Below are positions 4,349 through 37,630 of a stretch of DNA of 64,000 nucleotides, one piece after another; within the stretch, counting starts at the first letter, position 1; every line of letters begins with the position of its first letter. The DNA is from Eledone cirrhosa (lineage: Eukaryota), in the NCBI GenBank assembly GCA_964016885.1, contig OZ024757.1:1054001-1118000 (forward strand), given 5' to 3'. Position numbers and translations under genes: made by a program. The notes below the pieces were generated by a model. The model worked only from the letters and a program-made list of their open reading frames with translations, was not told where the DNA came from and ran no database searches.

Positions 4349-4975
4349 AAGATTTTGAGATTTTGATATTATTTATTTTGTGAACAATACGTTAACATCA
4401 CTATGAATGGCCAGTTTAAACAGAAAGAGGTGAGATAATTCTTGTCAGAGATTTATGGCTGGTTTAAATTCTTGGACATTGACCTCTTGACTATACAAAA
4501 ATATAAATGGGGAACTGAATCAAATGCTATGGTTAAATCTATCAGTTTACATCTCATGGTACATGCTGCTTGTTGATTTAAATATTTTTTTGGAAAAGTC
4601 CAGTTTTGGGTGTTTGCAGTCCCGCAGAATTGCTTTGTAGCCTTTTCATAATATGTAATGTTTGTAGTCCCATTTAGTTGAAGGAACTTGAATTTTAGCC
4701 ATAGTGTAGCTCTATCATATATAATGGTTGTCAGCAGAATTTAGTTGATAGAAACTTCTTAGTTTAGCCATAATGATTTTGTAATATTAACAAAATAATA
4801 AGTTATTTAAATATGTTTAATTAAGAGTGTAACGTTGTCCATTAAAGATATATTTGTCAGGAGAGGGACTATATTTATTTGAACTGTTGAAGGTAGAGAC
4901 ATGGTTGTGTGGTGACATGGACCATGAGATTGACTGAACCATGAAATATAACTGGTATAAAGTTAATGTGGTGTG

Positions 4976-5006
<31 letters not shown>

Positions 5007-5084
5007 CACCAGGTCCTATCACAAAGGAACCAAACTCCCACTCTCACTAACAGGTTTCTCTCGTTTTCCCCATCTCCCACTATT

Positions 5085-5450
5085 ATGAGCAAATGGAGGC
5101 TCCACACGCTGGTGGCCCTGGCAGAAAGACTAGGAAAGGTGTTTCCCCAGAAGATGGCAAGGGAGACACGCTGGAAGAGACAACTCGCGAGGCTCACACC
5201 TGCGGGTAGCCAACTCTGTGCTGATGGTAGTGGGTAGGGAGGTGGTCCTAGGACACCAGAAATCTCCACTGCTTCGGGGTGCAGATGGTGGTGAGTAGGG
5301 AGGTGGAGGTCCTGGGGCCAAGGACACCAGGAATTTCCACTTGGTGGTCTTTCCATCCACAATAACTAGTGATGGTTTAGCAAGGCTGATAAACATGATC
5401 TTGGTTTTCCCAAGATGGCTGTTAAGGTCCACTGGTTAACTCACCGTGTG
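5085..5450 (-). mobile_element. degenerate chimeric non-LTR remnant, copy 1 (RTE-like RT piece plus CRE-like RLE C-terminus)
   Basis: minus-strand HLGKTKIMFISLAKP..IVDGKT followed by AVEISGVLG, ELATRRCEPRE and FQRVSLAIFWGN; homologous to 24878-25410. Confidence 0.7.
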
Positions 5451-5770
5451 GTAAACCATGGTGAGTGGGATGTCCAGCTTGTACAGTCACCAAACTATCC
5501 ACTAGATATCACTGAAATAAGAAACTACAAGTCAAAAAATGATATATATTTAAATGAATATAATTTCCGAATTAAAAAACAGTCCTAAGATCGAATCCCT
5601 CACCATCAACTGTACCACCAATACACTAATAATTTCATTGTAAAAATATCTTTACTCCCAACTAGTACCGAATTACTTCCCTTCCTTTCGTTTATATTTT
5701 TTTTAAACCCAAATTTCAAGAATAGTTGTAAATATCACTAATATATTTAATACAATTTCGGCCTTCGCAG

Positions 5771-8700
5771 TGATGTGTTGACTGTCTCAGACTACCAGTC
5801 TACCTGACTGGCTTGTGGACTGTCTCTCAGACTACCAGTCTACCTGGCTGGCTTGTGGACTGTCTCAGACTACCAGTCTACCTGGCTGGCTTGCGGACTG
5901 TCTCAGACTACCAGTCTACCTGGCTGGCTTGTGGACTGTCTCAGACTACCAGTCTACCTGGCTGGCTTGCGGACTGTCTCAGACTACCAGTCTACCTGGC
6001 TGGCTTGCGGACTGTCTCAGACTACCAGTCTACCTGACTGGCGTGGTGACTGTCTCTCAGACTACCAGTCTACCTGGCTGGCTTGTGGACTGTCTCAGAC
6101 TACCAGTCTACCTGGCTGGCTTGCGGACTGTCTCAGACTACCAGTCTACCTGGCTGGCTTGCGGACTGTCTCAGACTACCAGTCTACCTGACTGGCGTGG
6201 TGACTGTCTCTCAGACTACCAGTCTACCTGGCTGGCTTGTGGACTGTCTCAGACTACCAGTCTACCTGGCTGGCTTGCGGACTGTCTCAGACTACCAGTC
6301 TACCTGGCTGGCTTGTGGACTGTCTCAGACTACCAGTCTACTTGACTGGCGTGGTGACTGTCTCTCAGACTACCATTCTACCTGGCTGGCTTGTGGACTG
6401 TCTCAGACTACCAGTCTACCTGGCTGGCTTGTAGACTGTCTCAGACTACTAGTCTACCTGGCTGGCTTGTGGACTGTGTCTCAGACTACCAGTCTACCTA
6501 GCTGGCTTGTGGACTGTCTCAAACTACCAGTCTACCTGGCTGGCTTGTGGACTGTGTCTCAGACTACCAGTCTACCTGGCTGACTTGTGGACTGTCTCAG
6601 ACTACCAGTCTACTTGACTGGCGTGGTGACTGTCTCTCAGACTACCATTCTACCTGGCTGGCTTGTGGACTGTCTCAGACTACCAGTCTACCTGGCTGGC
6701 TTGTAGACTGTCTCAGACTACTAGTCTACCTGGCTGGCTTGTGGACTGTGTCTCAGACTACCAGTCTACCTGGCTGGCTTGTGGACTGTGTCTCAGACTA
6801 CCAGTCTACCTGGCTGACTTGTGGACTGTGTCTCAGACAACCAGTCTACCTGGCTGGCTTGTGGACTGTCTCAGACTACCAGTCTACCTGGCTGGCTTGT
6901 GGACTGTGTCTCAGACTACCAGTCTACCTGGCTGGCTTGTGGACTGTCTCAGACTACCAGTCTACCTGGCTGGCTTGTGGACTGTGTCTCAGACTACCAG
7001 TCTACCTGGCTGGCTTGTGGACTGTCTCAGACTACCAGTCTACCTGGCTGGCTTGTGGACTGTGTCTCAGACTACCAGTCTACCTGGCTGGCTTGTGGAC
7101 TGTCTCAGACTACCAGTCTACCTGGCTGACTTGTGGACTGTGTCTCAGACAACCAGTCTACCTGGCTGGCTTGTGGACTGTCTCAGACTACCAGTCTACC
7201 TGGCTGGCTTGTGGACTGTGTCTCAGACTACCAGTCTACCTGGCTGGCTTGTGGACTGTCTCAGACTACCAGTCTACCTGGCTGGCTTGTGGACTGTGTC
7301 TCAGACTACCAGTCTACCTGGCTGGCTTGTGGACTGTCTCAGACTACCAGTCTACCTGGCTGGCTTGTGGACTGTGTCTCAGACTACCAGTCTACCTGGC
7401 TGACTTGTGGACTGTCTCAGACTACCAGTCTACCTGGCTGGCTTGTGGAAGGTGTTTCACACTACCAGTCTACCTGGCTGACTTGTGGACTGTGTCTCAG
7501 ACAACCAGTCTACCTGGCTGGCTTGTGGACTGTGTCTCAGACTACCAGTCTACCTGGCTGGCTTGTGGAAGGTGTTTCACACTACCAGTCTACCTGGCTG
7601 GCTTGTGAACTGTGTCTCAGACTACCAGTCTACCTGGCTGGCTTGTGGACTGTCTCAAACTACCAGTCTACCTGGCTGGCTTGTGGACTGTCTCAGACTA
7701 CCAGTCTACCTGGCTGGCTTGTGTACTGTGTCTCACACTACCAGTCTACCTGGCTGACTTGTGGACTGTGTCTCAGACTACCAGTCTACCTGGCTGGCTT
7801 GTGGACTGTCTCAGACTACCAGTCTACCTGGCTGGCTTGTGGACTGTGTCTCAGACTAGCAGTCTACCTGGCTGGCTTGTGGACTGTCTCAGATTACCAG
7901 TCTACCTGGCTGGCTTGTGGACTGTCTCAGAGTACCAGTCTACCTGGTTGATGTGTGACTGTCAAGTCGGTCTGGAGTTCTTTTGTTTAGATATCAAGTG
8001 AGTTACCTCCATTTATAATATTATCTCCTTATTTATTATAGAAATGGCTGGCTTGTGGACTGTCTCAGACTACCAGTCTACCTGGCTGGCTTGTGGACTG
8101 TCTCAGACTACCAGTCTACCTGGCTGGCTTGTGGACTGTCTCAGACTACCATTCTACCTGGTTGGCTTGTGGACTGTGTCTCTACCAGTCTACCTGGCTG
8201 ACTTGTGGACTGTCTCAGACTACCAGTCTACCTGGCTGGCTTGTGGACTGTCTCAGACTACCAGTCTACCTGGCTGGCTTGTGGACTGTCTCAGACTACC
8301 AGTCTACCTGGCTGGCTTGTGGACTGTCTCAGACTACCAGTCTACCTGGCTGGCTTGTGGACTGTCTCAGACTACCAGTCTACCTGGCTGGCTTGTGGAC
8401 TGTCTCAGACTACCAGTCTACCTGGCTGACTTGTGAACTGTCTCACACTACCAGTCTACCTGGCTGGCTTGTGGAGTGTCTCAGACTACCATTCTACCTG
8501 GTTGGCTTGTGGACTGTGTCTCTACCAGTCTACCTGGCTGGCTTGTGGACTGTCTCAGACTACCAGTCTACCTGGCTGGCTTGTGGACTGTCTCAGACTA
8601 CCAGTCTACCTGGCTGGCTTGTGGACTGTCTCAGACTACCAGTCTACCTGGCTGGCTTGTGGACTGTCTCAGACTACCAGTCTACCTGGCTGGCTTGTGG

Positions 8701-11700
8701 ACTGTCTCAGACTACCAGTCTACCTGGCTGGCTTGTGGACTGTCTCAGACTACCAGTCTACCTGGCTGACTTGTGAACTGTCTCAGACTACCAGTCTACC
8801 TGGCTGGCTTGTGGACTGTCTCAGACTACCATTCTACCTGGTTGGCTTGTGGACTGTGTCTCTACCAGTCTACCTGGCTGGCTTGTGGACTGTCTCAGAC
8901 TACCAGTCTACCTGGCTGGCTTGTGGACTGTCTCAGACTACCAGTCTACCTGGCTGGCTTGTGGACTGTCTCAGACTACCAGTCTACCTGGCTGGCTTGT
9001 GGACTGTCTCAGACTACCAGTCTACCTGGCTGGCTTGTGGACTGTCTCAGACTACCAGTCTACCTGGCTGGCTTGTGGACTGTCTCAGACTACCAGTCTA
9101 CCTGGCTGACTTGTGAACTGTCTCACACTACCAGTCTACCTGGCTGGCTTGTGGAGTGTCTCACACTACCAGTCTACCTGGCTGGCTTGTGAAGTGTCTC
9201 AGACTACCAGTCTACCTGGCTGACTTGTGGACTGTGTCTCAGACTACCAGTCTACCTGGCTGGCTTGTGGACTGTGTCTCAGACTACCAGTCTACCTGGC
9301 TGGCTTGTGGACTGTGTCTCAGTCTAGCAGTCTACCTGGCTGGCTTGTGGACTGTCTCAGACTAGCAGTCTACCTGGCTGGCTTGTGGACTGTCTCAGAT
9401 TACCAGTCTACCTGGCTGGCTTGTGGACAGTCTCAGACTACCAGTCTACCTGGCTGGCTTGTGGACTGTGTCTCAGACTACCAGTCTACCTGGCTGTCTT
9501 GTGGACTGTCTCAGACTACCAGTCTACCTGGCTGGCTTGTGGACTGTCACACAATACCAGTCTACCTGGCTGGCTTGTGGACTGTCTCACACTACCAGTC
9601 TACCTGGCTGGCTTGTGGACTGTGTCTCTACCAGTCTACCTGGCTGACTTGTGGACTGTCTCAGACTACCAGTCTACCTGGCTGGCTTGTGTACCGTCTC
9701 CCACTACCAGTCTACCTGGCTGGCTTGTGGACTGTCTCAGACTACCAGTCTACCTGGCTGATATGTGGACTGTCTCAGACTACCAGTCTACCTGGCTGGC
9801 TTGTGGACTGTGTCTCACACTACCAGTCTACCTGGCTGGCTTGTGGACTGTCTCAGACTACCAGTCTACATGGCTGGCTTGTGGACTGTCTAAGACTACC
9901 AGTCTACCTGGCTGGCTTGTGGACTGACTCAGACTACCAGTCTACCTGGCTGGTTTGTGGACTGTCTCAGACTAGACTACCAGTCTACCTAGATGGCTTG
10001 TGGACTGTCTCAGACTACCAGTCTACCTGGCTGGCTTGTGGACTGTCTCACACTACCAGTCTACCTGGCTGGCTTGTGGACTGTGTCTCAGACTAGCAGT
10101 CTACCTGGCTGGCTTGTGGACTGTCTCAGATTACCAGTCTACCTGGCTGGCTTGTGGACTGTCTCAGACTACCAGTCTACCTGGCTGGCTTGTGGACTGT
10201 CTCTCAGACTAGCAGTCTACCTGGCTGGCTTGTGGACTGTCTCAGACTACCAGTCTACCTGGCTGGCTTGTGGACTGTCTCTCAGACTACCAGTCTACCT
10301 GGCTGGCTTGTGGACTGTGTCTCAGACTACCAGTCTACCTAGCTGGCTTGTGGACTGTCTCAAACTACCAGTCTACATGGCTGGCTTGTGGAGGGTGTCT
10401 CAGACTAGCAGCCTACCTGGCTGGCTTGTGGACTGTCTCAGACTACCAGTCTACCTGGCTGGCTTGTGGACTGTCTCAGATTACCAGTCTACCTGGCTGG
10501 CTTGTGGACTGTGTCTCTACGAGTCTACCTGGCTGGCTTGTGTACCGTCTCAGACTACCAGTCTACCTGGCTGGCTTGTGGACTGTCTCAGACTACCAGT
10601 CTACCTGGCTGGCTTGTGGACTGTCTCAGACTACCATTCTACCTGGTTGGCTTGTGGACTGTGTCTCTACCAGTCTACCTGGCTGACTTGTGGACTGTCT
10701 CAGACTACCAGTCTACCTGGCTGGCTTGTGGACTGTCTCAGACTACCAGTCTACCTGGCTGGCTTGTGGACTGTCTCAGACTACCAGTCTACCTGGCTGG
10801 CTTGTGGACTGTCTCAGACTACCAGTCTACCTGGCTGGCTTGTGGACTGTCTCAGACTACCAGTCTACCTGGCTGGCTTGTGGACTGTCTCAGACTACCA
10901 GTCTACCTGGCTGACTTGTGAACTGTCTCACACTACCAGTCTACCTGGCTGGCTTGTGGAGTGTCTCAGACTACCATTCTACCTGGTTGGCTTGTGGACT
11001 GTGTCTCTACCAGTCTACCTGGCTGGCTTGTGGACTGTCTCAGACTACCAGTCTACCTGGCTGGCTTGTGGACTGTCTCAGACTACCAGTCTACCTGGCT
11101 GGCTTGTGGACTGTCTCAGACTACCAGTCTACCTGGCTGGCTTGTGGACTGTCTCAGACTACCAGTCTACCTGGCTGGCTTGTGGACTGTCTCAGACTAC
11201 CAGTCTACCTGGCTGGCTTGTGGACTGTCTCAGACTACCAGTCTACCTGGCTGACTTGTGAACTGTCTCAGACTACCAGTCTACCTGGCTGGCTTGTGGA
11301 CTGTCTCAGACTACCATTCTACCTGGTTGGCTTGTGGACTGTGTCTCTACCAGTCTACCTGGCTGGCTTGTGGACTGTCTCAGACTACCAGTCTACCTGG
11401 CTGGCTTGTGGACTGTCTCAGACTACCAGTCTACCTGGCTGGCTTGTGGACTGTCTCAGACTACCAGTCTACCTGGCTGGCTTGTGGACTGTCTCAGACT
11501 ACCAGTCTACCTGGCTGGCTTGTGGACTGTCTCAGACTACCAGTCTACCTGGCTGGCTTGTGGACTGTCTCAGACTACCAGTCTACCTGGCTGACTTGTG
11601 AACTGTCTCACACTACCAGTCTACCTGGCTGGCTTGTGGAGTGTCTCACACTACCAGTCTACCTGGCTGGCTTGTGAAGTGTCTCAGACTACCAGTCTAC

Positions 11701-14700
11701 CTGGCTGACTTGTGGACTGTGTCTCAGACTACCAGTCTACCTGGCTGGCTTGTGGACTGTGTCTCAGACTACCAGTCTACCTGGCTGGCTTGTGGACTGT
11801 GTCTCAGTCTAGCAGTCTACCTGGCTGGCTTGTGGACTGTCTCAGACTAGCAGTCTACCTGGCTGGCTTGTGGACTGTCTCAGATTACCAGTCTACCTGG
11901 CTGGCTTGTGGACAGTCTCAGACTACCAGTCTACCTGGCTGGCTTGTGGACTGTGTCTCAGACTACCAGTCTACCTGGCTGTCTTGTGGACTGTCTCAGA
12001 CTACCAGTCTACCTGGCTGGCTTGTGGACTGTGTCTCTACCAGTCTACCTGGCTGACTTGTGGACTGTCTCAGACTACCAGTCTACCTGGCTGGCTTGTG
12101 TACCGTCTCCCACTACCAGTCTACCTGGCTGGCTTGTGGACTGTCTCAGACTACCAGTCTACCTGGCTGATATGTGGACTGTCTCAGACTACCAGTCTAC
12201 CTGGCTGGCTTGTGGACTGTGTCTCACACTACCAGTCTACCTGGCTGGCTTGTGGACTGTCTCAGACTACCAGTCTACATGGCTGGCTTGTGGACTGTCT
12301 AAGACTACCAGTCTACCTGGCTGGCTTGTGGACTGACTCAGACTACCAGTCTACCTGGCTGGTTTGTGGACTGTCTCAGACTAGACTACCAGTCTACCTA
12401 GATGGCTTGTGGACTGTCTCAGACTACCAGTCTACCTGGCTGGCTTGTGGACTGTCTCACACTACCAGTCTACCTGGCTGGCTTGTGGACTGTGTCTCAG
12501 ACTAGCAGTCTACCTGGCTGGCTTGTGGACTGTCTCAGATTACCAGTCTACCTGGCTGGCTTGTGGACTGTCTCAGACTACCAGTCTACCTGGCTGGCTT
12601 GTGGACTGTCTCTCAGACTAGCAGTCTACCTGGCTGGCTTGTGGACTGTCTCAGACTACCAGTCTACCTGGCTGGCTTGTGGACTGTCTCTCAGACTACC
12701 AGTCTACCTGGCTGGCTTGTGGACTGTGTCTCAGACTACCAGTCTACCTAGCTGGCTTGTGGACTGTCTCAAACTACCAGTCTACATGGCTGGCTTGTGG
12801 AGGGTGTCTCAGACTAGCAGCCTACCTGGCTGGCTTGTGGACTGTCTCAGACTACCAGTCTACCTGGCTGGCTTGTGGACTGTCTCAGATTACCAGTCTA
12901 CCTGGCTGGCTTGTGGACTGTGTCTCTACGAGTCTACCTGGCTGGCTTGTGTACCGTCTCAGACTACCAGTCTACCTGGCTGGCTTGTGGACTGTCTCAG
13001 ACTACCAGTCTACCTGGCTGGCTTGTGGACTGTCTCAGACTACCATTCTACCTGGTTGGCTTGTGGACTGTGTCTCTACCAGTCTACCTGGCTGACTTGT
13101 GGACTGTCTCAGACTACCAGTCTACCTGGCTGGCTTGTGGACTGTCTCAGACTACCAGTCTACCTGGCTGGCTTGTGGACTGTCTCAGACTACCAGTCTA
13201 CCTGGCTGGCTTGTGGACTGTCTCAGACTACCAGTCTACCTGGCTGGCTTGTGGACTGTCTCAGACTACCAGTCTACCTGGCTGGCTTGTGGACTGTCTC
13301 AGACTACCAGTCTACCTGGCTGACTTGTGAACTGTCTCACACTACCAGTCTACCTGGCTGGCTTGTGGAGTGTCTCAGACTACCATTCTACCTGGTTGGC
13401 TTGTGGACTGTGTCTCTACCAGTCTACCTGGCTGGCTTGTGGACTGTCTCAGACTACCAGTCTACCTGGCTGGCTTGTGGACTGTCTCAGACTACCAGTC
13501 TACCTGGCTGGCTTGTGGACTGTCTCAGACTACCAGTCTACCTGGCTGGCTTGTGGACTGTCTCAGACTACCAGTCTACCTGGCTGGCTTGTGGACTGTC
13601 TCAGACTACCAGTCTACCTGGCTGGCTTGTGGACTGTCTCAGACTACCAGTCTACCTGGCTGACTTGTGAACTGTCTCAGACTACCAGTCTACCTGGCTG
13701 GCTTGTGGACTGTCTCAGACTACCATTCTACCTGGTTGGCTTGTGGACTGTGTCTCTACCAGTCTACCTGGCTGGCTTGTGGACTGTCTCAGACTACCAG
13801 TCTACCTGGCTGGCTTGTGGACTGTCTCAGACTACCAGTCTACCTGGCTGGCTTGTGGACTGTCTCAGACTACCAGTCTACCTGGCTGGCTTGTGGACTG
13901 TCTCAGACTACCAGTCTACCTGGCTGGCTTGTGGACTGTCTCAGACTACCAGTCTACCTGGCTGGCTTGTGGACTGTCTCAGACTACCAGTCTACCTGGC
14001 TGACTTGTGAACTGTCTCACACTACCAGTCTACCTGGCTGGCTTGTGGAGTGTCTCACACTACCAGTCTACCTGGCTGGCTTGTGAAGTGTCTCAGACTA
14101 CCAGTCTACCTGGCTGACTTGTGGACTGTGTCTCAGACTACCAGTCTACCTGGCTGGCTTGTGGACTGTGTCTCAGACTACCAGTCTACCTGGCTGGCTT
14201 GTGGACTGTGTCTCAGTCTAGCAGTCTACCTGGCTGGCTTGTGGACTGTCTCAGACTAGCAGTCTACCTGGCTGGCTTGTGGACTGTCTCAGATTACCAG
14301 TCTACCTGGCTGGCTTGTGGACAGTCTCAGACTACCAGTCTACCTGGCTGGCTTGTGGACTGTGTCTCAGACTACCAGTCTACCTGGCTGTCTTGTGGAC
14401 TGTCTCAGACTACCAGTCTACCTGGCTGGCTTGTGGACTGTCACACACTACCAGTCTACCTGGCTGGCTTGTGGACTGTCTCACACTACCAGTCTACCTG
14501 GCTGGCTTGTGGACTGTGTCTCTACCAGTCTACCTGGCTGACTTGTGGACTGTCTCAGACTACCAGTCTACCTGGCTGGCTTGTGTACCGTCTCCCACTA
14601 CCAGTCTACCTGGCTGGCTTGTGGACTGTCTCAGACTACCAGTCTACCTGGCTGATATGTGGACTGTCTCAGACTACCAGTCTACCTGGCTGGCTTGTGG

Positions 14701-17700
14701 ACTGTGTCTCACACTACCAGTCTACCTGGCTGGCTTGTGGACTGTCTCAGACTACCAGTCTACATGGCTGGCTTGTGGACTGTCTAAGACTACCAGTCTA
14801 CCTGGCTGGCTTGTGGACTGACTCAGACTACCAGTCTACCTGGCTGGTTTGTGGACTGTCTCAGACTAGACTACCAGTCTACCTAGATGGCTTGTGGACT
14901 GTCTCAGACTACCAGTCTACCTGGCTGGCTTGTGGACTGTCTCACACTACCAGTCTACCTGGCTGGCTTGTGGACTGTGTCTCAGACTAGCAGTCTACCT
15001 GGCTGGCTTGTGGACTGTCTCAGATTACCAGTCTACCTGGCTGGCTTGTGGACTGTCTCAGACTACCAGTCTACCTGGCTGGCTTGTGGACTGTCTCTCA
15101 GACTAGCAGTCTACCTGGCTGGCTTGTGGACTGTCTCAGACTACCAGTCTACCTGGCTGGCTTGTGGACTGTCTCTCAGACTACCAGTCTACCTGGCTGG
15201 CTTGTGGACTGTGTCTCAGACTACCAGTCTACCTAGCTGGCTTGTGGACTGTCTCAAACTACCAGTCTACATGGCTGGCTTGTGGAGGGTGTCTCAGACT
15301 AGCAGCCTACCTGGCTGGCTTGTGGACTGTCTCAGACTACCAGTCTACCTGGCTGGCTTGTGGACTGTCTCAGATTACCAGTCTACCTGGCTGGCTTGTG
15401 GACTGTGTCTCTACGAGTCTACCTGGCTGGCTTGTGTACCGTCTCAGACTACCAGTCTACCTGGCTGGCCTGTGGACTGTCTCAGACTACCAGTCTACCT
15501 GGTTGGCCTGTGGACTGTGTCTCAGACTACCAGTCTACCTGGCTGTCTTGTGGACTGTCTCACACTACCAGTCTACCTGGCTGGCTTGTGGACTGTCTCA
15601 CACTACCAGTCTACCTGGCTGGCTTGTGGACTGTGTCTCTACCAGTCTAGCTGGCTGACTTGTGGACTGTCTCAGACTACCAGTCTACCTGGCTGGCTTG
15701 TGTACCGTGTCACACTACCAGTCTACCTGGCTGGCTTGTGGACTGTCTCAGACTATCAGTCTACCTGGCTGGCTTGTGGACTGTCTCAGACTACCAGTCT
15801 ACCTGGCTGATATGTGGACTGTCTCAGACTACCAGTCTACCTGGCTGGCTTGTGGACTGTGTGTCACACTACCAGTCTACCTGGCTGGCTTGTGGACTGT
15901 CTAAGACTACCAGTCTACCTGGCTGGCTTGTGGACTGACTCAGACTACCAGTCTACCTGGCTGGTTTGTGGACTGTCTCAGACTACCAGTCTACCTAGAT
16001 GGCTTGTGGACTGTCTCAGACTACCAGTCTACCTGGCTGGCTTGTGGACTGTCTCACACTACCAGTCTACCTGGCTGGCTTGTGGACTGTCTCTCAGACT
16101 AGCAGTCTATCTGGCTGGCTTGTGGACTGTCTCAGATTACCAGTCTACCTGGCTGGCTTGTGGACTGTGTCTCAGACTACCAGTCTACCTGGCTGGCTTG
16201 TGGAGGGTGTCTCAGACTACCAGTCTACCTAGCTGGCTTGTGGACTGTCTCAAACTACCAGTCTACATGGCTGGCTTGTGGAGGGTGTCTCAGACTAGCA
16301 GCCTACCTGGCTGGCTTGTGGACTGTCTCAGAGTAGCAGTCTACCTGGCTGGCTTGTGGACTGTCTCAGATTACCAGTCTACCTGGCTGGCTTGTGGACT
16401 GTCTCACACTACCAGTCTACCTGGCTGGCTTGTGGACTGTGTCTCTACGAGTCTACCTGGCTGGCTTGTGTACCGTCTCACACTACCAGTCTACCTGGCT
16501 GGCCTGTGGACTGTCTCAGACTACCAGTCTACCTGGTTGGCTTGTGGACTGTGTCTCAGACTACCAGTCTACCTGGCTGTCTTGTGGACTGTCTCAGACT
16601 ACCAGTCTACCTGGCTGGCTTGTGGACTGTGTCTCAGACTACCAGTCTACCTGGCTGTCTTGTGGACTGTCTCACACTACCAGTCTACCTGGCTGTCTTG
16701 TGGACTGTCTCACACTACCAGTCTACCTGGCTGGCTTGTGGACTGTCTCACACTACCAGTCTACCTGGCTGGCTTGTGGACTGTGTCTCTACCAGTCTAC
16801 CTGGCTGACTTGTGGACTGTCTCAGACTACCAGTCTACCTGGCTGGCTTGTGTACCGTGTCACACTACCAGTCTACCTGGCTGGCTTGTGGACTGTCTAA
16901 GACTACCAGTCTACCTGGCTGGCTTGTGGACTGACTCAGACTACCAGTCTACCTGGCTGGTTTGTGGACTGTCTCAGACTACCAGTCTACCTAGATGGCT
17001 TGTGGACTGTCTCAGACTACCAGTCTACATGGCTGGCTTGTGTACCGTGTCACACTACCAGTCTACCTGGCTGGCTTGTGGACTGTCTAAGACTACCAGT
17101 CTACCTGGCTGGCTTGTGGACTGACTCAGACTACCAGTCTACCTGGCTGGTTTGTGGACTGTCTCAGACTACCAGTCTACCTAGATGGCTTGTGGACTGT
17201 CTCAGACTACCAGTCTACATGGCTGGCTTGTGGACTTTGTCTCAGACTAGCAGTCTACCTGGCTGGCTTGTGGACTGTCTCTGACTACCAGTCTACCTGG
17301 CTGGCTTGTGGACTGTCTCAGACTACCAGTCTACCTGGTTGATGTGTGACTGTCTCAGACTACCAGTCTACCTGGTTGATGTGTGACTGTCAAGCCGGTC
17401 TGGTGTTCTTTTGTATAGATATCAAGTGAGTTACCTCCATTTATAATATTTTCTCCTTATTTATTATAGAAATCGCTGGCTTGCAGACTGTCTCAGACTA
17501 CCAGTCTACCTGTCGTGCTTGTGGACTGTCTCAGACTACCAGTCTACCTGTCTGGCTTGTGGACTGTCTCAGACTACCAGTCTACCTGGCTGGCTTGTGG
17601 ACTGTGTCTCTACCAGTCTACCTGGCTGACTTGTGGACTGTCTCAGACTACCAGTCTACCTGGCTGGCTTGTGGACTATGTCTCAGACTACCAGTCTACC

Positions 17701-20700
17701 TGGCTGGCTTGTGGACTGTCTCAGACTATCAGTCTACCTGGCTGGCTTGTGGACTGTCTCAGACTACCAGTCTACCTGGCTGGCTTGTGGACTGTCTCAG
17801 ACTATCAGTCTACCTGGCTGGCTTGTGGACTGTCTCAGACTACCAGTCTACCTGGCTGATACGTGGACTGTCTCAGACTACCAGTCTACCTGGCTGGCTG
17901 GCTTGTGGACTGTGTCTCACACTACCAGTCTACCTGGCTGGCTTGTGGACTGTCTCAGACTAGCAGTCTACCTGGCTGGCTTGTGGACTGTCTCAGACTA
18001 CCAGTCTACCTGGCTGGCTTGTGGGCTCTGTCTCAGACTACCAGTCTACCTGGCTGGCTTGTGGACTGTGTCTCAGACTACCAGTCTACCTGGCTGGCTT
18101 GTGGACTGTGTCTCTACCAGTCTACCTGGCTGACGTGTGGACTGTCTCAGACTACCAGTCTACCTGGCTGGCTTGTGGACTGTGTCTCTACCAGTCTACC
18201 TGGCTGACTTGTGGACTGTCTCACACTAGCAGTCTACCTGGCTGGCTCGTGGACTGTCTCAGACTACCAATCAAACTGTCTGGCTTGTGGACTGTCTCAC
18301 ACAACCAGTCTACTTGGCTGGCTTGTGGACTGTCTCACACTACCAGTCTACCTGGCTGGCTTGTGGACTGTCTCTCAGACTAGCAGTCTACCTGGCTGGC
18401 TTGTGGACTGTCTCTCAGACTAGCAGTCTACCTGGCTGACTTGTGGACTGTGTCGGACTACCAGTCTACCTGGTTGACGTGTGACTGTCAAGCTGGTCTG
18501 GAGTTCTTTTGTATAGATATCAAGTGAGTTACCTCCATTTATAATATTATCTCCTTATTTATTATAGAAATGGCTGGCTTGTGGACTGTCTCAGACTACC
18601 AGTCTACCTGGCTGGCTTGTGGACTGTCTCAGACTACGAGTCTACCTGGCTGGCTTTTGGACTGTTTCAGACTACCAGTCTACCTGGCTGGCTTGTGGGC
18701 TCTGTCTCAGACTACCAGTCTACCTGGCTGACTTGTGGACTGTGTCTCTACCAGTCTACCTGGCTGAGTTGTGGACTGTCTCAGACTACCAGTCTACCTG
18801 GCTGAGTTGTGGACTGTCTCAAACTACCAGTCTACCTGGCTGGCTTGTGGACTGTCTCAGACTACCAGTCGACCTGGCTGGCTTCTGGACTATGTCTCAG
18901 ACTACCAGTCTACCTGGCTGGCTTGTGGACTGTGTCTCTACCAGTCTACCTGGCTGGCTCGTGGACTGTCTCAGACTACCAGTCGACCTGGCTGGCTTCT
19001 GGACTATGTCTCAGACTACCAGTCTACCTGGCTGGCTTGTGGACTGTGTCTCACACTACCAGTCTACCCGGCTGGCTTGTGGACTGTCTCAGACTAGCAG
19101 TCTACCTGGCTGATATGTGGACTGTTTCAGACTACCAGTCTACCCGGCTGGCTTGTGGACTGTCTCAGACTACCAGTCTACCTGGCTGATATGTGGACTG
19201 TCTCAGACTACCAGTCTACCTGGCTGGCTTGTGGACTGTGTCTCACACTACCAGTCTACCTGGCTGGCCTGTGGACTGTCTCAGACTAGCAGTCTACCTG
19301 GCTGGCTTGTGGACTGTCTAAAACTACCAGTCTACCTGGCTGGCTTGTGGACTGTCTCAGACTACCAGTCTACCTGGCTGGTTTGTGGAGTGTCTCAGAC
19401 TACCAGTCTACCTGGCTGGCTTGTGGACTGTCTCAGACTACCAATCAAACTGTCTGGCTTTTGGACTGTCTCACACAACCAGTCTACCTGGCTGGCTTGT
19501 GGACTGTCTCACACTACCAGTCTACCTGGCTGGCTTGTGGGCTATCTCAGATTACCAGTCTACCTGGTTGATGTGTGACTGTCAAGCCGGTCTGGAGTTC
19601 TTTTGTATAGATATCAAGTGAGTTTCCTCCATTTATAATATTATCTCCTTATTTATTATAGAAATGGCTGGCTTGTGGACTGTCTCATACTACCAGTCTA
19701 CCTGGCTGGCTTGTGGACTGTCTCAGACTACCAGTCTACCTGGCTGGCTTGTGGACTGTTTCAGACTACCAGTCTACCTGGCTGGCTTGTGGACTGTCTC
19801 AGACCACCAGTCTACCTGGCTGGCTTGTGGACTGTCTCAGACTACCAGTCTACCTGGCTGGCTTGTGGACTCTCTAAGACTTCCAGTCTACCTGGATGGC
19901 TTGTGGACTGTCTCACACTACCAGTCTACCTGGCTGGCTTGTGGACTGTCTCAGACTACCAGTCTACCTGGCTGGCTTGTGGACTGTGTCTCTACCAGTC
20001 TACCTGGCTGGCTTGTGGACTGTCTCAGACTACCAGTCTACCTGGCTGGCTTGTGGACTGTGTCTCTACCAGTCTACCTGGCTGGCTTGTGGACTGTCTC
20101 AGACTACCAGTCTACCTGGCTGGCTTGTGGACTGTGTCTCTACCAGTCTACCTGGCTGACTTCTGGACTGTCTCAGACTACCAGTCTACCTGGCTGGCTT
20201 GTGGACTGTCTCACACTACCAGTCTACCTAGCTGATATGTGGACTGTCTCAGACTACCAGTCTACCTGGCTGGCTTGTGGACTGTGTCTCACACTACCAG
20301 TCTACCTGGCTGGCTTGTGGACTGTCTCAGACTAGCAGTCTACCTGGCTGGCTTGTGGACTGTCTAAGACTACCAGTCTACCTGGCTGGCTTGTGGACTG
20401 TCTCAGACTACCAGTCTACCTGGCTGGCTTGTGGACTGTCTCAGATTACCAGTCTACCTGGCTGACTTGTGGACTGTGTCGGACTACCAGTCTACCTGGT
20501 TGATGTGTGACTGTCAAGCCGGTCTGGAGTTCTTTTGTATAGATATCAAGTGAGTTACCTCCCTTTATAATATTTTCTCCTTATTTATTATAGAAATGGC
20601 TGGCTTGTGGACTGTCTCAGACTAGCAGTCTACCTGGCTGGCTTGTGGACTGTCTCAGACTAGCAGTCTACCTGGCTGGCTTGTGGACTGTCTAAGACTA

Positions 20701-21929
20701 CCAGTCTACCTGGCTGGCTTGTGGACTGTCTCACACTACCAGTCTACCTGGCTGGCTTGTGGACTGTCTCTCAGACTAGCAGTCTACCTGGCTGGTTTGT
20801 GGACTGTCTCAGATTACCAGTCTACCTGGCTGACTTGTGGACTGTGTCGGACTACCAGTCTACCTGGTTGATGTGTGACTGTCAAGCCGGTCTGGAGTTC
20901 TTTTGTATAGATATCAAGTGAGTTACCTCCCTTTATAATATTTTCTCCTTATTTATTATAGAAATGGCTGGCTTGTGGACTGTGTCTCAGACTACCAGTC
21001 TACCTGGCTGGCTTGTGGACTGTCTCAGACTACCAGTCTACCTGGCTGGCTTGTGGACTGTCTCAGACTACCATTCTACCTGGCTGGCTTGTGGACTGTG
21101 TCTCTACCAGTCTACCTGGCTGGCTTGTGGACTGTTTCAGACTACCAGTCTACCTGGCTGGCTTGTGGACTGTCTCAGACCACCAGTCTACCTGGCTGGC
21201 TTGTGGACTGTCTCAGACTACCAGTCTACCTGGCTGGCTTGTGGACTGTGTCACACTACCAGTCTACCTGGCTGGCTTGTGGACTGTCTCAGACTACCAG
21301 TCTACCTGGCTGACTTGTGGACTGTGTCGGACTACCAGTCTACCTGGCTGGCTTGTGGACTATCTCAAACTACCAGTCTACCTGGCTGATATGTGGACTG
21401 TCTCAGACTACCAGTCTACCTGGCTGGCTTGTGGACTGTGTCTCAGACTACCATTCTACCTGGCTGGCTTGTGGACTGTGTCTCTACCAGTCTACCTGGC
21501 TGGCTTGTGGACTGTCTCAGACCACCAGTCTACCTGGCTGGCTTGTGGACTGTCTCAGACTACCAGTCTACCTGGCTGGCTTGTGGACTGTGTCTCTACC
21601 AGTCTACCTTGCTGGCTTGTGGACTGTCTCAGACTACCAGTCTACCTGGCTGGCTTGTGGACTGTCTCAGACTATCACTCTACCTGGCTGGCTTGTGGAC
21701 TATCTCAAACTACCAGTCTACCTGGCTGATATGTGGACTGTCTCAGACTACCAGTCTACCTGGCTGGCTTGTGGACTGTGTCTCACACTACCAGTCTACC
21801 TGGCTGGCTTGTGGACTGTCTCAGACTACCAGTCTACCTGGCTGACTTGTGGACTGTGTCGGACTACCAGTCTACCTGGTTGATGTGTGACTGTCAAGCC
21901 GGTCTGGTGTTCTTTTGTATAGATATCAA
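5771..21929 (+). pseudogene. putative 87-nt exon (DVLTVSDYQSTWLMCDCQAGLEFFCIDI) interrupted by the 38-bp satellite expansion
   Basis: acceptor ttcggccttcgcag ending 5770, donor aa/gtgagt at 21930; collapsing the array to one unit gives an open phase 2-2 segment; the terminal copy reads GLVFF, most internal copies GLEFF. Confidence 0.45.
5779..21895. repeat. 38-bp satellite (36- and 40-bp variants), roughly 400 copies, with 340-bp and about 2.4-2.5-kb higher-order repeats and six internal copies of the right flank
   Basis: monomer gactgtctcagactaccagtctacctggctggcttgtg; identical ORF strings at 8433/10918/13327 and at 9993/12402, with a matching start at 14887. Confidence 0.98.
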
Positions 21930-30891: not shown

Positions 30892-31076
30892 TTACTATTA
30901 TTACTTCAAGAACCACCTGTCTAGGAACTTTCTTAAACTGGCCACCTGACTAAGGAATCTTCTTGTTGAGTCAAACAACGGCGTACGTTAAAACTATCTT
31001 CGACACAGAGTACTCACAACCTCTAGCTGGATTACCTTAAACGATAACTTATCCTATATATATATATAGGATAAGT

Positions 31077-31195
31077 GAAGGCGTGTGGCTGAGTGGTTAG
31101 AGAATTGTATTCGCAATCGTAAGGTTGTGAGTTCGATTCCTGGACCAGGCGATGCGTTATGTCCTTGAGCAAGACACTTTATTTCACGTTGCTCC
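31077..31195 (+). mobile_element. SINE family B 5' part (tRNA head plus start of CORE)
   Basis: tggctgagtggttag...gagttcgattcct...ccttgagcaagacactttatttcacgttgctcc. Confidence 0.8.
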
Positions 31196-31567
31196 TTCTA
31201 CCTGGAGTTGCGACCGATAGATAGTATTAGCAATTGGAAAGACCAACGGAAACATTGTTCCCTCGGTCCGATTTGACAAAAAAGTCGATCGTTCCTTATA
31301 TATAAATGAAAAGTATAGAAATTATTGTAGCAAGAAGCCAACAGTATTTCATAATATATAAGTGACTATAGCGTCAAAATGGAAAAATAGTTAATGTAAG
31401 ATGTGGGAAAATAATTCAAACTCAATTGAAAAAGAATCAGGATATAGATTCATCCAACAGAATTTAGTGAAATCCAGGGAAAAATCAATAGAGCTTTAAC
31501 TCAGAATAAAATAAAGTTTAAAATACTCATCCTTCAATATATATATATATACACACACAGAGGGGAC

Positions 31568-31922
31568 TACTCTCAGGTCCCAAATTATAGGGCAGGGATG
31601 GAAAATCGGTAATTTTTCTAGGTTGTCTCCCTTGATTTTTTAAAAACCAGAATTAGTCGTTTAGTTTACATATTGAGACCCCAACCCATCCTATTTATTT
31701 TATAACATTTGGGATTTCTAGTAATGTACTTTGTTGTCATGTAGAATGTTTTCTGACGTTTAAAGAAAATTAATTGTTGCAGGGATGATGTCACTTAAAA
31801 TATGTCGCTGGAGATAGATTAGGAAAATTTAATAAGTGAGAGGTGGGGTTCGAATAAGAACAGGGTGGGGGGTCTGAGAAATTAATAAGCAGGGGTGGGG
31901 CGATTATTGGTGATCTAAGGTG
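31568..31922. mobile_element. possible degenerate Tc1/mariner-type MITE
   Basis: left end tactctcaggtcccaaatta, degenerate right end ggggcgattattggtgatctaaggt, internal ttaataag..ggtgggg subrepeats. Confidence 0.35.
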
Positions 31923-32139
31923 ACACACCATTGAATGTTGATAGAAAACATTCTGATTACGTCATCTAATTTGATACATTCTAATTCTTTTGTGAGAGTA
32001 AGTGTCTGTGAAACACTGATTCACTACAAACATCCAATCATTGCTATTGACATTGTTATAGGAACACCTATGTAATGCTGGCTAGAAATAAAGGAGTGAA
32101 ATGGCTATAAGGTGTGGAACGGGTGTAAAGTTCACATAT

Positions 32140-32235
32140 CTAGTTACGTAGTTATATAGTTACGTGGATATGTAGTTACGTGGTTATATAGTTATGTAGT
32201 TACATGGTTATATAGTTATGTAGTTATGTGGTTAC
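32140..32235. repeat. short degenerate 8-10-bp tandem repeat (tagttacg/tggttata)
   Basis: direct reading. Confidence 0.8.
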
Positions 32236-32464
32236 AAAGTGAAGTGGTTATGTATAGATGGACCGATAACATCTGATTGAGACCTGGTGGATATTAATTT
32301 AAAACCTGTTAAAGTCCTCTTCCTCTCCAGGTCTAAAAACAGTTGATTTCTTCCATGGAAGGAGAGAGATTTATTTGTATAGGAATAATTTTTGTCGTGA
32401 CACCTACACGACCTCATTTATATAAATAATATAAGATCAAAAGATGGTTAAAAGAGTTCCAAGT

Positions 32465-32533
32465 ATTTTATTATGCGGATTTCAAAAACAAATATCATCA
32501 TGAGATGATATCTGCGTTTTCATCAGATAAAAT
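32465..32533 (-). ncRNA. minimal type I hammerhead ribozyme, mirror copy (stem III tccgca)
   Basis: reverse complement of 32618-32686 with two substitutions. Confidence 0.72.
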
Positions 32534-32617
32534 AGGGATACATGATATGTATCAACATATGTTGATTTAAAACTTCACTATTCACAAGTGTTTTTAAGCT
32601 TCATATCATGTATCCCT

Positions 32618-32686
32618 ATTTTATCTGATGAAAACGCAGATATCATCACATGATGATATTTGTTTTTGAAATGCGCATAATAAAAT
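32618..32686 (+). ncRNA. minimal type I hammerhead ribozyme
   Basis: attttat CTGATGA aaacgcagatatcatc-acat-gatgatatttgttttt GAAA tgcgca TA ataaaat: perfect 7-bp stem I, long stem II, palindromic stem III. Confidence 0.85.
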
Positions 32687-32808
32687 ACTTGGAACTCTTT
32701 TAACCATCTTTTGATCTTATATTATGTATACTCCAGTCCTACAAACTGTAGAGTGCTTCTTATCCGATATCTGCATTGCTTTATTGTACTACAATAAAAC
32801 TCACCTCC

Positions 32809-32811
<3 letters not shown>

Positions 32812-32857
<46 letters not shown>

Positions 32858-32905
32858 ATATATATGTGTATATATATGTGTATATATGTATATATATGTA
32901 TATGT
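32812..32905. repeat. (TA)n/(TATG)n microsatellite
   Basis: direct reading. Confidence 0.95.
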
Positions 32906-33051
32906 GCAAGGCCTTTCCCCACTTAAAAATCCTTCAAAGCACAGGCATTGCTTGTTCAGGATATGTTACAGGTTCGTGTGGCTGACCGTAGCCTAAAAGT
33001 GCACCAAACTCTATAACCTGACAGTACTCTTAGCAGAGTTTGCAGCCATCA

Positions 33052-33094
<43 letters not shown>

Positions 33095-33261
33095 ATGTGT
33101 ATATATGTATATATATGCATATATATATGTAGAAGTTATATTTAATTTGTTGGGATACAACAAGCAAATATTTTTATAACTGATATAAAGCACTCAACAA
33201 ATTATTGGAGTAAAAATACGATATATTAACAAATGGAAACTATATTTATAAAACCATATTT

Positions 33262-33324
33262 ATTTCATTATACATATTTCAAGGACACCAAGTCAAATTA
33301 TGGTGTGCTTTCATCAGATAAAAT
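33262..33324 (-). ncRNA. minimal type I hammerhead ribozyme, mirror copy
   Basis: reverse complement of 33486-33548. Confidence 0.75.
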
Positions 33325-33485
33325 ATAATATAGATCAGTTTTATAAATAAATATTGACATACCCTTAAAGAATGCGACCATTTCTGTTGGAAGCTCCCGG
33401 ATAGACTATCCGGGAGCTTCCAACAGAAATGGTCGCATTCTTTAAGGGTATGTCAATATTTATTTATAAAACTGATCTATATTAT

Positions 33486-33548
33486 ATTTTATCTGATGAA
33501 AGCACACCATAATTTGACTTGGTGTCCTTGAAATATGTATAATGAAAT
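33486..33548 (+). ncRNA. minimal type I hammerhead ribozyme
   Basis: attttat CTGATGA aagcacacca-taatttgact-tggtgtcctt GAAA tatgta TA atgaaat: stem I with one GU pair, 9 of 10 pairs in stem II, near-palindromic stem III. Confidence 0.8.
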
Positions 33549-33559
33549 AAATATGGTTT

Positions 33560-33563
33560 TATA

Positions 33564-33606
<43 letters not shown>

Positions 33607-33915
33607 ATGTGTATATATGTATATATATGCATATGTATATATATGCATATAAATATGTGTGTGTATATATATATATGTGTGTGTGTATATATACGTATAT
33701 ATATGTGTGTGTATATTTGTGTATATATATATGTGTATATGTGTATACATATATGTATGTATATATATATATATAAATATATTAATATGTATATATACTG
33801 TGCCAGTATGAGTGTGTTCCTGCGTGCTGTATGTACTTGTGCGTGTGTGTGTGTGTGTTCATGTGTGTACCTGTATGAACACACACACATACATATGTGT
33901 GTGTGTGTGTGTGTT
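33560..33915. repeat. compound TA/TG microsatellite
   Basis: direct reading. Confidence 0.95.
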
Positions 33916-34168
33916 AGTAAGGTAAAATAAAACAAAACCCCACAGTTTAACTCTCTAGGTAATATTCTGTGATATTTTGGGGTGGGACACCTTTTTCAGA
34001 TGGTAAAAGACAATAGAGTTTGATGTGAGTCTATATTTCACTAAAGAGAGATGGCCATGGGTGGATTTTGAATGTATTTTATTGACAGGTGGATTCAACT
34101 AGAGGTGACCTAGGGTTAAACAACACCACAAATATCGCAGTTTGTAAACAAAGGCTCACATCCGTTGC

Positions 34169-34376
34169 TGGTGGTGGTGGTGGTGGTGGTAGAGGGGGTG
34201 GGGGTAGTAGTGGTGGTAGTGGTAGTAGTTGTAGTAGTGGTGGTAGTAGCAGTGGTAGTAGTAGTAGTAGTAGTAGCAGTGGTAGTAGCAGTAGTAGCAG
34301 CAGTAGTGGTAGTAGTAGTAGTAGTAGTAGTAGCAGTGGTAGTAGTGGTAGTGGTAGTAACAGTAGTGGTAGTAAC

Positions 34377-34411
<35 letters not shown>

Positions 34412-34562
34412 CAGTGGTAGTAGTAGTAGCAGTGGTAGTAGTGGTAGCGCCAGTAGTAGCAGTAGTAGTGTTAGTAGTAGTAGTAGTAGCAGCTGTAGTG
34501 GTAGTAGTAACAGCAGTAGTAGTGGTGGTTGCATTGGTAGCTGCAGTAGTGGTGGTAGTAGC

Positions 34563-34593
<31 letters not shown>

Positions 34594-34610
34594 ACAGTGG
34601 TGGTAGTTGG
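34169..34610. repeat. (GGT)n/(AGT)n/(AGC) trinucleotide microsatellite
   Basis: direct reading; explains the poly-S/V/T/L ORFs. Confidence 0.97.
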
Positions 34611-35064
34611 TGTCGTAAAGGGGAACAAAGTCACACAACTAGGACGAGGTCACGAGAGTTATGTAACGTAGTGTTCACGTGATCACCTCGTGTTAACTTT
34701 TATCATGGCTGCCATCACGGTAAACTGCACCAACTTAACCGACACACACACACACACACACACATATGTGTGTATATATATATACATATGTATGTATGTA
34801 TAAATATATATATACATACATATAGATATAGATTTACCTACACTCACACATACACATCCATACACACACATGCACCCATAAATGTAAACTTCTGTTGACA
34901 CACATAAATATTTATATATACACACACACTCACAAATGTATAGAAATATATAATATATATATATATATACATACAGGAGATACATGAAAAGAACATGTTT
35001 TTTCATTGCAGGGTGGTTTTACTCCGTTGCTTCCTTTGATATATATATATATATATGTATTTAG

Positions 35065-35736: not shown

Positions 35737-37630
35737 TGTATGTCAGCTAGTCTGGATCTCTGGAAGGGTACCACGGCTGAAGTATGTCAGCTAGTCTGGA
35801 TCTCTGGAAGGGCACCACGGCTGAAGTATGTCAGCTAGTCTGGCACTCTGGAAGGGCACCACGGCTGAAGTATGTCAGCTAGTCTGGATCTCTGGAAGGG
35901 CACCACGGCTGAAGTATGTCAGCTAGTCTGGATCTCTGGAAGGGCACCACGGCTGAAGTATGTCAGCTAGTCTGGATCTTTGGAAGGGCACCATGGCTGA
36001 AGTATGTCAGCTAGTCTGGATCTCTGGAAGGACACCATGGCTGAAGTATGTCAGCTAGTCTGGATCTCTGGAAGGGTACCACGGCTGAAGTATGTCAGCT
36101 AGTCTGGATCTCTGGAAGGGCACCACGGCTGAAGTATGTCAGCTAGTCTGGCACTCTGGAAGGGCACCACGGCTGAAGTATGTCAGCTAGTCTGGATCTC
36201 TGGAAGGGCACCACGGCTGAAGTATGTCAGCTAGTCTGGATCTCTGGAAGGGCACCACGGCTGAAGTATGTCAGCTAGTCTGGATCTCTGGAAGGGCACC
36301 ATGGCTGAAGTATCTCAGCTAGTCTGGATCTCTGGAAGGGTACCACGGCTGAAGTATGTCAGCTAGTCTGGATCTCTGGAAGGGTACCACGGCTGAAGTA
36401 TGTCAGCTAGTCTGATTCTCTGGAAGGGTACCACGGCTGCAGTATGTCAGCTAGTCTGGATCTCTGGAAGGGCACCACGGCTGAAGTATGTCAGCTAGTC
36501 TGGATCTCTGGAAGGGCACCACGGCTGAAGTATGTCAGCTAGTCTGGATCTCTGGAAGGGCACCATGGCTGAAGTATCTCAGCTAGTCTGGATCTCTGGA
36601 AGGGTACCACGGCTGAAGTATGTCAGCTAGTCTGGATCTCTGGAAGGGTACCATGGCTGAAGTATGTCAGCTAGTCTGGATCTCTGGAAGGGTACCACGG
36701 CTGAAGTATGTCAGCTAGTCTGGATCTCTGGAAGGGCACCACGGCTGAAGTATGTCAGCTAGTCTGGATCTCTGGAAGGGCACCATGGCTGAAGTATCTC
36801 AGCTAGTCTGGATCTCTGGAAGGGTACCACAGCTCATGTATGTCAGCTAGTCTGGATCTCTGGAAGGGTACCACGGCTGAAGTATGTCAGCTAGTCTGGA
36901 TCTCTGGAAGGGCACCATGGCTGAAGTATCTCAGCTAGTCTGGATCTCTGAAAGGGCACCACGGCTGAAGTATCTCACCTAGTCTGGATCTCTGGAAGGG
37001 TACCATGGCTGAAGTATGTCAGCTAGTCTGGATCTCAGGAAGGGTACCACGTCTGAAGTATGTCAGCTAGTCTGGATCTCTGGAAGGGTACCACGGCTGA
37101 AGTATGTCAGCTAGTCTGGATCTCTGGAAGGGTACCATGGCTGAAGTATGTCAGCTAGTCTGGATCTCAGGAAGGGTACCACGTCTGAAGTATGTCAGCT
37201 AGTCTGGATCTCTGGAAGGGTAACACGGCTGAAGTATGTCAGCTAGTCTGGATCTCTGGAAGGGTACCACAGCTCATGTATGTCAGCTAGTCTGGATCTC
37301 TGGAAGGGTACCACGGGTCAAGTATGTCAGGTAGTCTGGACCTCTGGAAGGGCACCACGGCTCATGTATGTCGGATCTCTGGAAGGGCACCACGGCTCAT
37401 GTATGTCAGACCTCTAGGAAGGGTACTGCAGCTCATGTATGTCAGCTAGTCTGGACATCTGGAAGGGCACCACGGCTCATGTATGTCGGATCTCTGGAAG
37501 GGTACCACAACTCATGTATGTCAGCTAGTCTGGACCTCTGGAAGGGCACCATGGCTCATGTATGTCAGACCTCTGGAAAAGCACCAAGGCTCATGTATGT
37601 CAGCTAGTCGGGAACTCTGGAAGGGCACCA
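35737..37630. repeat. 44-bp satellite, about 43 copies, derived from LINE ORF2
   Basis: monomer gtatgtcagctagtctggatctctggaagggcaccacggctgaa; tggaagg at 35761 and 35805. Confidence 0.97.

Follow-up and report, generated by a model that had tools for sequence, protein, structure and literature searches.

In the accessible portions of the published descriptions, an inverted 5'-truncated copy, a one-sided tail of 30-40 bp and a bias toward microsatellites are standard features of Penelope-like element (PLE) insertions, and the formation of the tandem and inverted PLE structures is named as an open task (PMC8557442). Head-to-head palindromic junctions have been attributed to self-priming that uses an antisense template (Arkhipova et al. 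2013, PMC3846280). Minimal hammerheads have a palindromic loop 3 and show weak, dimer-dependent cleavage (PMC4209133). A Poseidon protein extends both target strands in vitro, with two start sites that bound the tail; ribozyme cleavage is dispensable in this system and a dimer is predicted (PMC11167929). The available part of an octopus repeat annotation reports Penelope families but mentions neither hammerheads nor palindromes (PMC13282606). A literature search with sparse coverage of subscription journals found no paper on twin priming of PLE inverted pairs or on a fixed pLTR 5' start.

Two palindromic elements were identified in the window, which is the whole stretch of 64,000 nucleotides of Eledone cirrhosa DNA analysed here. 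Their identity and architecture make them almost certainly 5'-truncated head-to-head insertions of two PLE families, named A and B. The inverted repeat of element 1 is 129 nt long with 98% identity (32421-32549/32602-32730), and that of element 2 is 163 nt long with 99% identity (33242-33404/33406-33568). These two palindromes are the longest of 813 inverted-repeat pairs in 31000-35000, and their arms differ by three substitutions in element 1 and by one in element 2. The earlier note placed both palindromes within 32426..33563; the palindromes stand, but their one-sided tails were missed. The true extents are 32421-32811 and 33128-~33563, larger than first noted because one arm per element carries a tail of 81 or 88 nt. 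The features of the two elements and of the flanks of element 2 are as follows.

32421 to 32811, plus strand: element 1, head-to-head insertion of the 3' end (pLTR) of PLE family A
32421 to 32549, minus strand: tail-less arm of element 1 (locus L001), covering family positions 210 to 81 as counted from the tail end
32550 to 32555, no strand: element 1 junction insert, 6 nt, repeating the initial bases of the right arm in inverted orientation (templated-insertion type)
32556 to 32811, plus strand: element 1 tailed arm, beginning at the family A 5' hotspot (A at 32557, position 256)
32731 to 32811, plus strand: element 1 tail, 81 nt, family A, continuing into the ORF leader in full-length copies
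33062 to 33122, plus strand: left copy of the exact 61-nt microsatellite duplication flanking element 2
33128 to 33563, minus strand: element 2, head-to-head insertion of the 3' end (pLTR) of PLE family B
33128 to 33215, minus strand: element 2 tail, 88 nt, family B
33128 to 33404, minus strand: element 2 tailed arm, positions 277 to 0
33405 to 33563, plus strand: element 2 tail-less arm, beginning at the family B 5' hotspot (A at 33405, position 278)
33574 to 33634, plus strand: right copy of the exact 61-nt flank duplication of element 2

The arms of element 1 meet at the 6-nt insert and those of element 2 at a blunt join. The tail-less arm of element 2 stops approximately 26 nt before the usual tail-less end. 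Tail folding does not differ significantly from that of shuffled sequences (z of -1.2 and -1.4). The 61-nt duplication of imperfect microsatellite around element 2 is a possible long target-site duplication and the sole such long case among 154 pairs. Target-site duplications showed no excess over mismatched-flank controls (1 vs 3 of 154 at complexity ≥7).

The spacer at 32905-33052 comes from a third high-copy repeat, of which it is the 3' end, truncated on the 5' side. This repeat (1,867 first-look candidates at 89-94% identity) ends in (TA)n or (TATG)n, and some of its copies adjoin an inverted piece. Immediately left of element 1, at 32389-32421, lies part of a further abundant repeat, which breaks off at an ATAT stretch where element 1 begins. 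Satellite arrays with 72-, 38-, 44- and 48-nt units (1982-4348, 5776-21879, 35738-37630 and 37789-64000) make up approximately 70% of the window.

A hammerhead pattern gave six raw matches in the 64-kb window, representing four motifs, every one of them in the palindrome arms. Among 100 shuffled sequences, the mean was 0.97 matches and none reached six. Together, the inverted-repeat search and this pattern reproduce the central observation of the earlier note, two palindromes with minimal hammerheads on all four arms.

32464 to 32534, minus strand: minimal type I hammerhead, element 1 left arm, core 32526, predicted cut after 32472, loop III TCCGCA
32617 to 32687, plus strand: minimal type I hammerhead, element 1 right arm, core 32625, predicted cut after 32679, loop III TGCGCA
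33261 to 33325, minus strand: minimal type I hammerhead, element 2 left arm, core 33317, predicted cut after 33269
33485 to 33549, plus strand: minimal type I hammerhead, element 2 right arm, core 33493, predicted cut after 33541, loop III TATGTA

The motifs contain the type I core (CUGANGA / GAAA / UH), helices I and II and a palindromic loop 3, with one substitution breaking the palindrome in the TCCGCA loop of the element 1 left arm. Stem I is TATTTTAT/ATRAAATA in both elements. Stem II is unlike between the elements (36 vs 30 nt) and folds in both, with z scores of -3.3 and -4.7 in element 1 and only -1.1 in element 2. It had been proposed that the elements share the core and stem I and differ in a stem II that stays paired; this holds, but the sharing is not restricted to these parts and extends to a homologous tail. 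The covariation expected among genomic copies was also seen, as each stem II pair is intact in 40-46 of the 46 distinct variants and some changes are two-sided. An Rfam gathering scan of the window gave no matches.

Truncations at the predicted cut site, a weak genomic proxy for cleavage, number ~154, vs ~60 and ~88 at neighbouring positions. In a cut-site sample, the truncated fraction was 16/30 vs 12/30 and 14/30 at the neighbours, which is not significant, and the cut-site truncations are tiny beside the 5' hotspot counts given below. The cut-site excess is about two-fold over neighbouring positions. Cleaved RNA is likely at most a minor template, with uncleaved RNA the main one. Judged from sequence, the four predicted ribozymes would be passengers of the pLTR. 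Since the two motifs of each palindrome sit on opposite strands, any single transcript has one motif only. A transcript reading through the palindrome would contain the antisense arm first, and this arm would likely sequester the predicted ribozyme.

Longer copies connect the palindrome arms to coding elements. Upstream in these copies are at least ~1.1 kb of 3' UTR and then GIY-YIG and RT frames in the hammerhead sense. Full-length-like copies (e.g. L190) have the order pLTR and tail, short leader, ORF, 3' UTR, pLTR and tail, and the tail runs into the leader at 46 loci. The tail-to-tail unit is 4.2 kb in L190 and ~3.8 kb in L199. This linkage to RT-EN ORFs bears out the Penelope-like origin that had been suggested from the window alone. 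The extreme 5' truncation with an inverted copy, also suggested there, is likewise supported. An RT with a C-terminal GIY-YIG, partial pLTR tandems with a sense hammerhead, and an inverted 5'-truncated copy with a one-sided tail are all present, as in EN+ PLEs. The copies examined bear stops or frameshifts, and a Pfam search with nine parent protein pieces gave no hits. A total of 33 homologues were found at E≤1e-20, with 31-47% identity and many with PF26215; the two named ones (P0001 and P0032) are cephalopod proteins auto-annotated as 'GATA zinc finger domain-containing protein 14-like'.

The RTs of families A and B share 56% identity over 396 aa. They contain RWR (B) or RWI (A) at the RWK column of the homologues, SDKT in both, YRDD and CxCX5C. 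The EN has one Cys between VY and Y[VF]G, followed by CxxCxxE and N..CxH. In alignment A1 (columns 698-850), the CxCX5C linker, the lack of CCHH, and CxxC and CxH flanking E and N are all seen. The unit is longer than the <3 kb that is typical for the Hydra clade, a length that is not diagnostic. By motifs set against the written clade definition, families A and B match Hydra-type PLEs. Assignment to the Neptune clade was dropped against the clade definitions in PMC8557442. A Nematis-like EN beside locus L057, considered as that of family B, was found to be part of another element. Near A/B copies, L061 (oriented 1904-6317), L044 and L057 hold another PLE with a CxxC linker and an EN Cys pair, in inverted arrangement. 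Family A (L164:1380-3131, L170) has a long Asn-rich stretch between the RT and the linker, which is absent from the homologues and resembles the N-rich inserts described in PMC3846280.

A search of the 3.0-Gb assembly, counted per arm as had been proposed, retrieved 868 first-look candidates for the element 1 arm and 749 for the element 2 arm, the best 40 at 96-99% identity. Both arms belong to young families. A 17-mer of stem I and core common to both elements has 24,691 exact matches in the genome (control 0), spanning several related families. The genome holds several further PLE families. Other hammerhead families (L064, L179, L231, L042, L156 and more) combine the same core with different sequences in stem II and loop III. 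Compact palindromes number roughly 2,700 genome-wide, as extrapolated from 26 Mb of one contig, and such palindromes probably number in the thousands because the core 17-mer occurs so often. The 3' end of a copy falls at one of two fixed points, which are separated by 81 nt in family A and by 88 nt in family B. (TA)n comes next, and (TA)x3 was found at 137/154 and 142/154 ends.

The inverted-pair statistics rest on 155 distinct head-to-head pairs in the fetched loci, which were best-scoring or first-listed and mostly from contig C1. One tailed and one tail-less end were found in 146 of these pairs, two tail-less ends in five and two tailed ends in one, with three unclassified. Without the loci from tail-containing queries, the one-tail rule holds in 91 of 97 pairs. 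Among the 146 pairs, the tail-less arm reaches further 5' in 64, the two arms are equal in 49 and the tailed arm is longer in 33; the corresponding numbers in the pattern-sampled sets are 35, 25 and 5. Since a fold-back copy must lie within its template, the 64 pairs need two primed strands, barring later deletions. Asymmetric deletions in palindromes could mimic some of them.

Where arms overlap by ≥100 nt (66 and 48 pairs), they agree at 988/1031 and 262/280 polymorphic sites (96% and 94%), with 534 and 155 expected. Rare variants are present in both arms at 25 and 33 sites, and common-variant differences occur at 24 and 14. The arm concordance points to one template or one source. Shared haplotypes would also be expected from fold-back, from subsequent gene conversion or from a pair of RNAs made at one locus. 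Junctions show overlaps of 0-7 nt, blunt joins or short templated inserts, types that suggest end-joining repair. The element 1 junction occurs at only two genomic places. The second (G000:C18:13257804-13258189; L002/L074) lies 12 Mb off on the same contig, with unrelated flanks and ~97% identity to element 1 over 406 nt; this palindrome was therefore copied whole at least once. Mostly, however, the palindromes are not a conserved element copied as a unit, as junctions differ between loci.

The 5' ends of the copies pile on one base, and a third to half of the copies reaching this base begin there. For family A, a non-native base precedes the +1 A at 5,457 sites and 2,245 are of the overlapped-centre type, against 6,840 native ones; for family B, 718 non-native junctions stand against 1,483 native ones; paired arms are counted twice in these figures. 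Inspection of hotspot loci, 30 per family, revealed point variants rather than truncations in one (B) and two (A). An inverted partner adjoins the hotspot loci in 21/30 (B) and 53/60 (A). No ORF-linked pLTR starts at the hotspot (0/28 and 0/16 measurable; 2/46 not measurable), including 0/26 of those reaching the site, a shortage with p of 5e-4 and 0.02. This argues against an intrinsic RT stop as the origin of the hotspot. The start of a full-length mRNA was likewise not supported as its origin, with 0/44 measurable ORF-linked pLTRs beginning there. Given this absence, the model below needs a short or tail-limited transcript, which is hypothetical. A G precedes +1 in 43/100 and 41/100 rows, vs a background of 19%; this excess is as a cap-templated base would give and is confounded by microhomology with the partner arm. 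The fixed 5' start makes a short non-coding PLE-mobilised RNA plausible; the earlier note had envisaged short elements of this kind.

Our main reading, to which we give a probability of approximately 0.62, is that single-RNA twin priming with end-joining lies behind both palindromes. The endonuclease of the element would cut a (TA)n target, and each cut DNA end would prime cDNA on the same short pLTR RNA. One end would prime at the tail end and the other 81-88 nt inside, at the tail-less end, in keeping with the pair of internal start sites reported for a Poseidon PLE. The tail-primed cDNA would displace the other strand or abort, and would abort more often because that strand must be displaced. 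Synthesis of both cDNAs would end by run-off at the RNA 5' end, the transcript being one that has its start within the pLTR and is likely capped. Microhomology or templated-insertion repair would then join the free cDNA ends into a head-to-head palindrome. The two-primer step is strongly suggested; a single RNA and a capped start are what we infer. With somewhat less than even odds, we propose that a short capped transcript of the pLTR, measuring ~256 and 278 nt up to the tail end, is produced by Hydra-clade PLEs and serves as a SINE-like mini-template, primed twice from the two ends of one (TA)n break at starts 81-88 nt apart. On this proposal, thousands of palindromes in the genome would record single-RNA two-primer integration, replacing self-priming.

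It is possible, although unlikely, that two-ended priming takes place on two RNAs held by an RT dimer, or that the hotspot is an RT pause or RNA processing site. Unequal arms are accounted for equally well in this way, and a dimer is the predicted form of the Poseidon PLE (PMC11167929). A few pairs (L113, L118, L256 and L258) differ at several common polymorphic sites, as two RNAs would allow, but the overall arm concordance of 96% and 94% and the variants unique to both arms of one pair speak against it. Independent RNAs would not alone impose the one-tail rule. If there were a pause, ORF-linked pLTRs would stop there too, and none of the 26 that reach the site do.

In fold-back self-priming, a cDNA or an antisense RNA would fold on itself close to the 5' end of the pLTR, and copying back would yield the inverted arm; this is how head-to-head PLE palindromes have been read in the literature (PMC3846280). 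The route was also proposed in the earlier note, and we consider it distinctly unlikely. As the sole route it is contradicted, barring central deletions in all of them, by the 64 of 146 pairs in which neither arm lies inside the other, but single loci may still fit. Formally, it fits the other 82 pairs (equal or tailed-longer), and both window elements, taken singly, are also compatible with it. The haplotype and rare variants that the arms have in common agree with copying back, as does the self-complementary ATAT start of family A, with perfect centres in 35 pairs (hand count among the first 100 listed rows). Centres with 0-1 nt spacers, however, would need sterically poor loops, and at some junctions (L248/L249) a non-native G precedes both arms. 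Two kinds of pair also stand against fold-back, namely those with a tail-only partner of 38-98 nt next to an arm of 230-450 nt and those in which a short tailed arm faces a tail-less one of 1.4-3 kb.

It is very improbable that the palindromes are an independent non-coding element of retrozyme, MITE or viroid type that is copied whole and has ribozymes working on either strand. One such copying event is indicated by the recurrence of the element 1 junction, but junctions and arm lengths differ from locus to locus, coding PLEs have these arms as their 3' ends, and there is neither a tandem array nor a fixed symmetrical end. A MITE or foldback DNA transposon was rejected on asymmetric ends, a variable inner junction and the lack of target-site duplication excess. 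A non-LTR retrozyme was rejected for want of head-to-tail units; among the first 100 listed sites, cores ≤300 nt apart were head-to-head in 11 cases, tail-to-tail in one and same-strand in one. The probability of a fold-back sequencing or assembly artefact, raised in the earlier note, is negligible: no read or contig bridged the window centres by 31 letters on both sides, but substitutions and a biologically defined tail set the arms apart, the one-tail asymmetry repeats in 146 pairs, and in raw Illumina reads of another sample the family A start is joined to the opposite strand (32559/32714, 76 reads, 2 starts).

Within this genome the window elements are nothing unusual, and their layout has been published before; what is new is the copy statistics of the families. 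Thousands of young insertions follow a strict one-tail rule, with same-template arms and a base-exact 5' start, and these family statistics give sharp predictions for an existing in vitro PLE system. With ~24,700 hammerhead cores in one animal genome, Hydra-type PLEs can be a major repeat class. The palindromes are also potential dsRNA hairpins, probably thousands in one animal genome.

Compared with the Hydra clade as described in the consulted portion of Craig et al. (2021, PMC8557442), families A and B share RW[K/R], DKT, the CxCX5C linker, the lack of a GIY-YIG Cys pair, CxxC and CxH around E and N, the pLTR hammerhead and (TA)n targeting. They differ in their unit of ~3.8-4.2 kb vs 'generally <3 kb', in RWR/RWI for RWK, in thousands of copies where that source lists a small number of extra families, and in a tail of 81-88 nt vs 30-40 bp. 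The head-to-head copy, palindromic junction, one-end tail and microsatellite bias are also found in the PLE inverted pLTR insertions as presented there (PMC8557442 fig. 2) and in PMC3846280. Unlike those insertions, the present ones consist of the pLTR alone and have a base-exact 5' start in a large part of the family, and the pair statistics argue against the self-priming route of PMC3846280. With Poseidon PAc of Anolis (Frangieh et al. 2024, PMC11167929) they have in common two RT starts bounding the tail and an AT-rich target. Poseidon PAc belongs to another clade, and the A/B hammerhead lies upstream of the ORF start, not over it; the accessible text of PMC11167929 does not derive inverted pairs from the two starts. 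The minimal PLE hammerheads, as far as described in the available part of Cervera and de la Pena (2014, PMC4209133), are likewise type I with a long helix II, a palindromic loop 3, a predicted need for dimers and thousands of copies per genome, and differ from the present ones, in which helix I is at least 8 bp. Finally, animal non-LTR retrozymes, as outlined in the part of bioRxiv 10.64898/2026.07.22.740005 available to us, are similarly non-coding and pLTR-related, carry a type I hammerhead and are proposed to be non-autonomous PLE derivatives. The retrozymes are head-to-tail tandem repeats, whereas the palindromes described here are dispersed head-to-head pairs.
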